IMG/VR virus record: IMGVR_UViG_2713896787_000017
Origin: a virus
Taxonomy: Duplodnaviria; Heunggongvirae; Uroviricota; Caudoviricetes
Length of the DNA: 16,070 nucleotides
Reading direction: 5' to 3' (one strand)
The notes beneath the pieces are model-generated. The model had not been told where the DNA came from and did not search any database. It saw nothing but the letters and a program-made list of their open reading frames with translations. This document shows, one piece after another, positions 13,226-14,249 of the stretch. Made by a program: the position numbers and the translations under genes. The first letter of the stretch is position 1; every line of letters starts with the position of its first letter.

Positions 13226-13384
13226 ATGATTAATTATAATGATGGTTGGTATTATGTTCTTGCTCGTTATGATAATTGTCTGGTTTTGTCTACTTCTTTC
13301 AATGCAGGTAGTAAAAGGTTTGTCATTTATCAATCAGCACAAGATAAGAATCTTCAGGTTGATATTGTAAGGACCAGAATTTAA
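13226..13384 (+). CDS. Possible small ORF (52 aa) downstream of the membrane protein gene
   Basis: Hand-translated: MINYNDGWYYVLARYDNCLVLSTSFNAGSKRFVIYQSAQDKNLQVDIVRTRI. Starts 38 nt after the membrane protein stop; only a weak purine-rich Shine-Dalgarno. Below the ORF-track length cutoff. Confidence 0.25.
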   Translation: MINYNDGWYYVLARYDNCLVLSTSFNAGSKRFVIYQSAQDKNLQVDIVRTRI

Positions 13385-13517
13385 TTGGCTGCATAAATAA
13401 TATTTTAAGTTGCAAGTTGGCTATTCGTAGGAATAGAACCTTAGGCATGCTGAATGCGTTTTCTGAACATTGTTTTATAAACTGTGTCTGCTTGCTGTTG
13501 TGATCCTGCTTTTAGTG

Positions 13518-13628
13518 ATGGTGATGATGGATTTCACCAGCAGGATAATGTTGGTACTGACTGATGGCGCTCTGGTCTGCGGCATTGTGGTATTGCTGTG
13601 GCCGATGATGAAAGAACAGAATGAATAA
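13518..13628 (+). CDS. Possible small hydrophobic peptide (36 aa)
   Basis: Hand-translated: MVMMDFTSRIMLVLTDGALVCGIVVLLWPMMKEQNE, with one predicted transmembrane stretch. No convincing Shine-Dalgarno. Confidence 0.2.
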   Translation: MVMMDFTSRIMLVLTDGALVCGIVVLLWPMMKEQNE

Positions 13629-13814
13629 TTCTTGACTTTTTTGTTTACTGTTTATTAAAAAATCAACCGCATGGTGAATCCTCCTTGGAGGGGCTAAATG
13701 ATCGAGTTTTAAGGGCACGTAGCGAGTTCTGTTTGATCATTGCAGAACTTAGCGGGAGGCGCCATGCGTACATCACTAATGTTATTTCCTTCTATCATTT
13801 TCCTTGTGAGTTCT

Positions 13815-13841
13815 GGCTGCGCATGGCGCGGCCTTTTTTTT
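13815..13841 (+). terminator. Intrinsic terminator closing the Q-proximal moron
   Basis: GGCTGCGC-atg-GCGCGGCC, an 8-bp GC-rich stem with one G-U pair (13815-13833), immediately followed by T8 (13834-13841). Confidence 0.65.
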
Positions 13842-14249
13842 ATGACCTGCCACTGGCAGATGGTCATCCTGTGATTTGATTCCGGTTCCGGCTTTTTAAC
13901 TCTGTTCCTGTACACGGGAGAAATTCTATGTCGATTAATCGTTATGATATTGGTTACAAGAAGTACCACGTATTGTGTTGAGATAGAAAGCATGGTGCCA
14001 GAGGTAAATGCAGCAGCATAATAAAAAAGAGCCAGCGCAGAAGAGAACGGGTAAAAGAGTCTGCGCTGGCGTGGGGATATTCCCCGTGGAGAAATGATAT
14101 GTAACACACATCGGGAACCTTTCTATATAAACATTATCATTATTGTCAATCATAACAGTCAGGTATTATGACGTTTATGCATCAGGGCCATCAGGAATTA
14201 ACTGGTGGCTTTTTATTGTTGTCAGCTTCCGGATAACGGGAGACGGGGT

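Follow-up and report, generated by a model that had tools for sequence, protein, structure and literature searches.

Small open reading frames in a cargo cassette of an Escherichia coli O111 lambdoid prophage: a pseudogene tail, part of the DUF3927 gene tciB, and the small RNA gene pasD1

The three small open reading frames (ORFs) located between the antiterminator gene Q and the lysis genes of the window, i.e., the complete stretch of 16,070 nucleotides of viral DNA analysed here (IMG/VR record IMGVR_UViG_2713896787_000017), can be assigned with high confidence. ORF1 is the tail of a pseudogene, ORF2 is the 3' part of tciB, and ORF3 is a fortuitous frame in the small RNA (sRNA) gene pasD1. 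The coordinates, lengths and sequences of the three ORFs given in a preliminary description of this region were confirmed. Their designation as unannotated does not apply to ORF1 and ORF2: RefSeq lists a pseudogene at 12630-13384, already flagged as frameshifted in strain 11128, and a DUF3927 protein at 13470-13628. All three elements are covered by existing annotation or literature and are thus already known. As 43 ORFs of at least 20 aa overlap positions 12400-14300, the occurrence of these three is not beyond chance.

By its nucleotide sequence, the window represents a lambdoid E. coli O111 prophage. Over positions 12380-14210, it matches a prophage of E. coli O111:H- strain 11128 and numerous further O111 genomes with 100% identity, and phages 2B8 and 434 with 97.6-97.8% identity. 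The interval between Q and the lysis genes is the classical cargo position of lambdoid phages, and a cargo cassette is found there also in phage 434 and in prophages PP2 and PP4 of the enteropathogenic strain E2348/69. PP4 encodes an identical Q protein. In lambdoid prophages of pathogenic E. coli the cassette is ordered as membrane protein gene (phrog_1521), tciB (DUF3927), pasD sRNA gene and sialate esterase gene. Two of these four genes have decayed in the O111 copy, namely the frameshifted membrane-protein gene and the internally deleted esterase gene. The esterase deletion was seen by alignment with phage 434 and PP2, and blastn matched the two halves of the remnant to positions 2188-2240 and 3995-4081 of the related locus L084. 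The same 17-codon remnant is present in 41 of 84 related loci, and the deletion is shared by PP4. The positions of all features are compiled in Table 1.

Table 1. Features of the cargo cassette and its borders. Positions refer to the window.
Feature	Position	Strand	Remarks
Q antiterminator gene	11754-12377	+	RefSeq 'antitermination protein' WP_001235460.1; upstream border of the cassette
Frameshifted pseudogene of a 247-aa membrane protein	12630-13384	+	phrog_1521; CPT_434_68 in phage 434; WP_001302581.1 when intact
11-bp tandem duplication	13147-13168	+	GGCATATTTCT twice; 11-column gap exactly here in the alignment with phage 434
ORF1	13226-13384	+	final 52 codons of the disrupted gene, read in its original frame
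tciB (DUF3927 family gene)	13470-13628	+	52 aa, TTG start; RefSeq WP_000499454.1
Putative sigma-70 promoter of pasD1	13632-13661	+	TTGACT at 13632-13637, 18 nt, TAAAAA at 13656-13661, 7 nt to G13669
pasD1 sRNA gene	13669-13841	+	173 nt; identical to NC_011601 1060260-1060432
3' arm of the predicted PasD1 closing helices	13754-13767	+	holds GGGAGG (sRNA nt 86-91) and the ATG (nt 96-98) of ORF3
ORF3	13764-13874	+	36 codons; inside/overlapping the 3' half of pasD1; not a gene
PasD seed UGUGAG	13804-13809	+	unpaired in the centroid fold
Rho-independent terminator of pasD1	13815-13841	+	8-bp stem, 3-nt loop, U8; hairpin 13815-13833 (terminator scan)
Remnant of nanS-p type SASA sialate esterase gene	13929-about 14037	+	first 24 nt (13929-13952) fused to last ~85 nt (13953-about 14037)
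Class II holin, lysozyme and spanin cluster	holin about 14250-14465		downstream border of the cassette

Directly after Q, positions 12381-12464 (+) resemble annotated pR'/qut sites of HK97-, HK022- and P22-like phages (about 90-92% identity); Q-modified polymerase should therefore transcribe through the entire cassette as well in late infection. A tRNA scan of the window detected no tRNA gene. In the related cassettes L089 (1653-1899), L091 and L092 (294-534), two to three tRNA genes are located between Q and a fragment of the TerB-like gene tciA. At the distal end of the cassette, positions 14021-14110 (-) gave a weak full-length match to the EHEC sRNA Esr41 (RF02676; 32.3 bits vs. a gathering score of 102, E ~3e-4), with a hairpin and U-tract of its own and convergent on pasD1. 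Esr41-like matches are frequent near PasD (Zhu, Shabalina and Storz 2026, bioRxiv 10.64898/2026.05.13.724894).

ORF1 had been described as a 52-aa soluble peptide. Alignment with phage 434 and the match to phrog_1521 identified it instead as the C-terminal tail of the frameshifted 247-aa gene. The intact gene is present in phage 434 (744 bp, 'putative membrane protein') and in both E2348/69 prophages (WP_001302581.1), and the intact 434 protein matches phrog_1521 over the whole profile (E=1.9e-154). In the window, the 11-bp duplication shifts the frame and leads to a premature stop at 13185-13187, after 185 codons counted from 12630. Because ORF1 is the remainder of the original frame after the duplication, it is a pseudogene tail and no peptide gene. 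Its translation aligns with positions 171-222 of 222 in phrog_1521 (E=7e-32) and with positions 28-79 of 79 in phrog_3985; no family of its own was found in Pfam or NCBIfam. Among the 82 related loci that include the gene start, 16 carry a copy broken by various lesions. These 16 loci show at least nine different truncations, and PHROGs keeps separate families for N- and C-terminal fragments. The variety of breaks suggests recurrent decay or homopolymer sequencing errors. The sequence at 12799-12809 (AUGAUGUUGCC), inside the membrane-protein gene, is listed for the E2348/69 orthologue E2348C_0686 as a site targeted by the sRNA PasA in RIL-seq (PMC8550237).

ORF2 (13518-13628) constitutes the 3' two-thirds of tciB, as the homologous gene is named in the phage 434 record. 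The 52-aa product matched Pfam family PF13064 (DUF3927) with 53 bits (E=3.4e-14, cut-off 25), residues 7-50 being aligned with profile positions 7-49 of 53, and phrog_1470 'TciB-like' with E=2.5e-17. Since the DUF3927 match covers residues 7-50, the family profile reaches upstream of the ATG at 13518. Hydropathy analysis revealed two hydrophobic segments flanking an invariant DFTSRI loop, and the predicted topology is that of an inner-membrane hairpin with two helices. The view of ORF2 as a small hydrophobic membrane protein in a prophage cargo cassette thus stood. Its description as a 36-aa single helix had to be replaced: translation from TTG 13470 yields 52 aa with two hydrophobic segments, and both the Pfam profile and the homologues cover the upstream residues.

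The 74 clusters of TciB homologues all originate from E. coli or E. albertii. In an alignment of 16 homologues (60-88% identity), K4 and the DFTSRI loop were invariant and no stops were present. Only hydrophobic-for-hydrophobic changes occurred in the N-terminal segment (MFYKLCLLAVVILLLV vs. MTVKLRLAVAALLLFL), and indels comprised whole codons or 7-residue repeats. Both other frames of tciB contain stops. The dN/dS value of 0.70, obtained from a single pair with a 67%-identical homologue, is weak evidence of purifying selection; given this weak signal, the coding status of tciB rests on family membership and the in-frame indels. No obvious Shine-Dalgarno (SD) sequence precedes the TTG start. 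In a literature search, the name TciB yielded only unrelated acronyms, and DUF3927 turned up in just two papers, neither of a functional nature. Coupling of tciA and tciB was also detected in lambdoid phages with a nearby Q gene (Evi, LMessi and Klebsiella phage 5) and in the N4-like phage Pollock. The tciA-tciB pair of phage Pollock is followed, at a distance of a few hundred bases, by a match to a group I intron (101 bits; locus L095, 1755-2107).

The region downstream of tciB encodes the sRNA PasD1. When both PasD loci of E2348/69 were fetched and aligned, 13669-13841 was identical to PasD1 in 173 of 173 nucleotides. PasD1 was defined in that strain as a 173-nt RNA (NC_011601 1060260-1060432, plus strand) with the northern probe CATGCGCAGCCAGAACTCACAAGG (Table S6 in Pearl Mizrahi et al. 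2021, PMC8550237), and this probe corresponds exactly to the reverse complement of 13801-13824. In E2348/69, PasD1 was validated by northern blotting, depends on Hfq for its stability, is highly abundant in RNA-seq and was detected by RIL-seq (PMC8550237). The same study reported a PasD seed UGUGAG matching a CUCACA motif in RIL-seq targets (Fig. S5, Table S7), and contacts with mRNAs through the 3' 40-50 nt; targets include gltI, coaE, yhdW, spr, cesF, perB and uspA (PMC8550237). The PasD1 stretch found in RIL-seq chimeras (1060384-1060434; PMC8550237) corresponds to 13793-13843 of the window, within ORF3. As in PasD, the seed is located directly upstream of a Rho-independent terminator with U-tract. 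The locus belongs to a lambdoid prophage, follows Q and directly adjoins the holin/lysozyme operon; its layout and proteins equal those of PP4. The data on expression, Hfq association and targets come from work on another strain; pasD1 is presumably expressed in the O111 strain as well.

PasD1 was found in 678 of 5426 complete E. coli genomes with a total of 908 copies, and pasD1 is not annotated there in RefSeq. The gene is probably transcribed from its own promoter, which would start 4 nt after the tciB stop. This putative promoter was read from the sequence and is conserved in PasD2, in L089, in L085 (with TTGATT) and in phage Evi; its spacing agrees with the 5' end of PasD1 published from RNA-seq, and a consensus promoter scan did not flag it. 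The notation for PasD1 in the source paper also permits a 3'UTR origin (PMC8550237). PasD1 and PasD2 have been described as structural relatives of STnc100 that are located near Q and LpxR genes, PasD2 upstream of a sialate esterase gene and PasD1 beside the holin/lysozyme operon (bioRxiv 10.64898/2026.05.13.724894). The EHEC homologue of PasD is given as EcOnc13 (Tree et al. 2014, as cited in Table S6 of PMC8550237). On the opposite strand, RefSeq lists a 132-aa hypothetical protein (WP_012578864.1; 13709-14107, minus strand) that is antisense to PasD1 and extends across the junction of the esterase deletion at 13952. In loci with an intact esterase gene, the homologous stretch is flagged as frameshifted or partial. 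WP_012578864.1 is probably a spurious ORF.

At gathering thresholds, Rfam gave no match in the window. In a permissive search, 13639-13844 produced a full-length match to STnc100 (RF02076) with 37.7 bits (E ~1e-6), which does not reach the gathering score of 47. Bona fide STnc100 copies occupy the same genomic position in L085 (101.6 bits) and phage Evi (119.9 bits). Weak matches over the terminator (SorX, asX2, GcvB, toxic sRNA) were dismissed, as they are far below threshold and of a generic terminator type. Both predicted PasD1 structures (minimum-free-energy and centroid) contain helices between nt 86-91 and nt 12-17 (CCUCCU) and between nt 92-99 (CGCCAUGC) and nt 1-8 (GCAUGGUG). The closing helix is kept in an RNAalifold consensus with STnc100 relatives, in which the inner stem shows compensatory changes; this consensus comprised four sequences only, and the z-score of the PasD1 fold was only -2.07. 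In the predicted structure the GGGAGG and the AUG are paired, so that an apparently perfect ribosome-binding site turns out to be one arm of a helix.

ORF3 is a chance frame in the 3' half of pasD1. According to the opposing view, PasD1 would be a dual-function RNA: translation from GGGAGG-N4-AUG would yield either a small hydrophobic peptide (or lipopeptide) or a leader peptide acting on termination at the hairpin, and hence on read-through into the esterase or lysis genes. The GGGAGG taken for an SD sequence is indeed present (13754-13759) at ideal spacing from the ATG, and this arrangement is conserved in PasD1, PasD2 and the STnc100 copies; it forms the 3' arm of the predicted closing helix, complementary to the 5' end of the sRNA. 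In the phage 434 annotation, this stretch is assigned to a 62-aa 'putative membrane protein'. In RIBOseq data from EDL933, eleven STnc100 copies had ribosome coverage values from 0 to 3.2, some of them 1.5-3.2. The peptide itself is not conserved. The preliminary description had named conservation of the frame in homologous regions as a check; across 83 homologous loci with near-identical DNA, ORF3 encodes 36 aa in 44, stops after 14 codons in 37 and is shifted in two. PasD2 and phage 434 carry a 1-nt deletion seven codons after the ATG, resulting in MRTSLVLFLLSFSL followed by a stop. Length changes of the U-tract (T7, T8, T9) shift the tail of ORF3. At the same SD-ATG in the STnc100 copies of L085 and phage Evi, a different frame starts, with unrelated peptide sequences. 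The sRNA contains no in-frame stop, since its 3' end falls 33 nt short of the ORF3 stop codon (13872-13874). The terminator hairpin noticed earlier within the ORF was confirmed, including its T8. Between PasD1 and PasD2/434, its two substitutions are both non-synonymous in ORF3; yet a G-to-A change turns a G-U into an A-U pair, so the terminator stem is kept. The usual lipobox consensus is [LVI][ASTVI][GAS]C. The lipobox-like SSGC noted in ORF3 has Ser at -3 and falls outside this consensus; its codons overlap the seed and the terminator, and the frame is lost in 39 of 83 loci. No credible family was found in Pfam, NCBIfam or PHROGs for ORF3, the 64-aa frame from TTG-13685, the 62-aa frame of phage 434 or the antisense 132-aa ORF, and PADLOC defence models matched neither the membrane protein nor TciB nor ORF3. 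Translation of ORF3, with the leader-peptide version included, is thus judged very unlikely, and what small probability we keep for it is owed to the ribosome coverage of STnc100 copies. The earlier suspicion that ORF3 may have no product was borne out; the leader peptide proposed in its place is at odds with the overlap with the validated sRNA PasD1. Independent expression of ORF1 as a 52-aa soluble peptide, starting at its internal ATG after the frameshift, is extremely unlikely. ORF1 does have an ATG and a frame open to the native stop, and PHROGs lists its C-terminal fragment type as a separate family (phrog_3985). Yet it is a segment of a protein that is intact in 66 of the 82 loci, and such fragment families reflect repeated independent breakage of the phrog_1521 gene. 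Moreover, no SD sequence was found 5' of ATG 13226, and the duplication allele is confined to four of 84 related loci, being absent from phage 434 and the other 80.

A type I toxin had been considered for ORF2. In this reading TciB would be a toxin-like or toxic membrane peptide curbed by an antisense RNA or by the adjacent PasD/STnc100 sRNA. TciB is small and very hydrophobic and has a prophage cargo position, and in the E. coli lambdoid cassettes the sRNA promoter overlaps or abuts the tciB stop, the sRNA starting 5-41 nt after it (PasD1, PasD2, L089, L085 and phage Evi). Several observations speak against a toxin. No promoter or terminator consensus was detected on the minus strand opposite 13470-13628, although the lack of such sites is no proof against an RNA, and the Rfam search revealed no antitoxin RNA. 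TciB matched no toxin family in Pfam or NCBIfam and no PADLOC defence model, and it has two hydrophobic segments, not one. In most phages tciB is coupled to the co-directional TerB-like tciA, its usual partner, and PasD is co-directional with tciB, not antisense. Three tciA-tciB phages, among them the N4-like and presumably lytic Pollock, have no neighbouring STnc100 match. We therefore regard the toxin as highly improbable. The adjacency may also be read as a fixed two-gene module of tciB and an STnc100/PasD sRNA in the late-region cassettes of E. coli lambdoid phages, in which the pairing could be functional; we consider this unlikely. If it were functional, the sRNA might partly be made as the tciB 3'UTR, or the membrane peptide might be coupled to sRNA output; alternatively, the sRNA might be weakly translated from the conserved SD-AUG. 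The PasD and STnc100 papers considered here make no mention of DUF3927. A general linkage between DUF3927 and STnc100 was rejected, as STnc100 is absent in LMessi, Klebsiella phage 5 and Pollock.

The assignment of the three ORFs to a pseudogene tail, tciB and pasD1 is chiefly of value for annotation. Recognition of the sRNA averts false calls of small proteins, lipoproteins or toxins beside virulence-relevant prophage cargo, and PasD1 provides an example of an sRNA helix arm that mimics a perfect SD sequence plus ATG. No new biology arises from the small-ORF cluster as posed; the tight adjacency of tciB and a following STnc100/PasD sRNA in E. coli lambdoid cassettes is the only, mildly new point.

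Among known systems, TciB of phage P1 (PF13064, phrog_1470) resembles the window protein in its small size, its hydrophobic hairpin and its invariant DFTSRI motif. The TerB-like tciA precedes tciB, with overlapping stop and start codons, in P1-like, N4-like and many lambdoid phages. In the window, by contrast, the preceding gene is that of the unrelated phrog_1521 membrane protein, and the TTG lies 86 nt downstream of it. STnc100 (RF02076), a prophage-encoded enterobacterial sRNA, aligns with the window sRNA over model positions 1-206. STnc100 and PasD have in common the 5' end GCAUGGUGAAUCC, the inner stem-loop with compensatory changes, the GGGAGGC element, an identical terminator and a location between tciB and the esterase gene, with tciB directly adjacent. 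Immediately before the terminator, PasD carries UUGUGAGUUCU and the STnc100 copies CCCUUUAUUUCC; the seed is therefore PasD-specific.

The phage 434 cassette (CPT_434_68 to CPT_434_71, OL657226) has the same gene order as the window and is 97.8% identical. Unlike the window, it contains an intact membrane-protein gene, an sRNA sequence of the PasD2 type and a full esterase gene, and its record has the 62-aa protein in place of an sRNA. The closest counterpart is PasD1 of E2348/69, with which the window shares the seed, the terminator and the neighbours, i.e., the identical Q protein, the DUF3927 gene and an identical holin directly downstream. The sRNAs do not differ; the host here is O111, and the upstream membrane-protein gene, intact in E2348/69, is frameshifted in the window.
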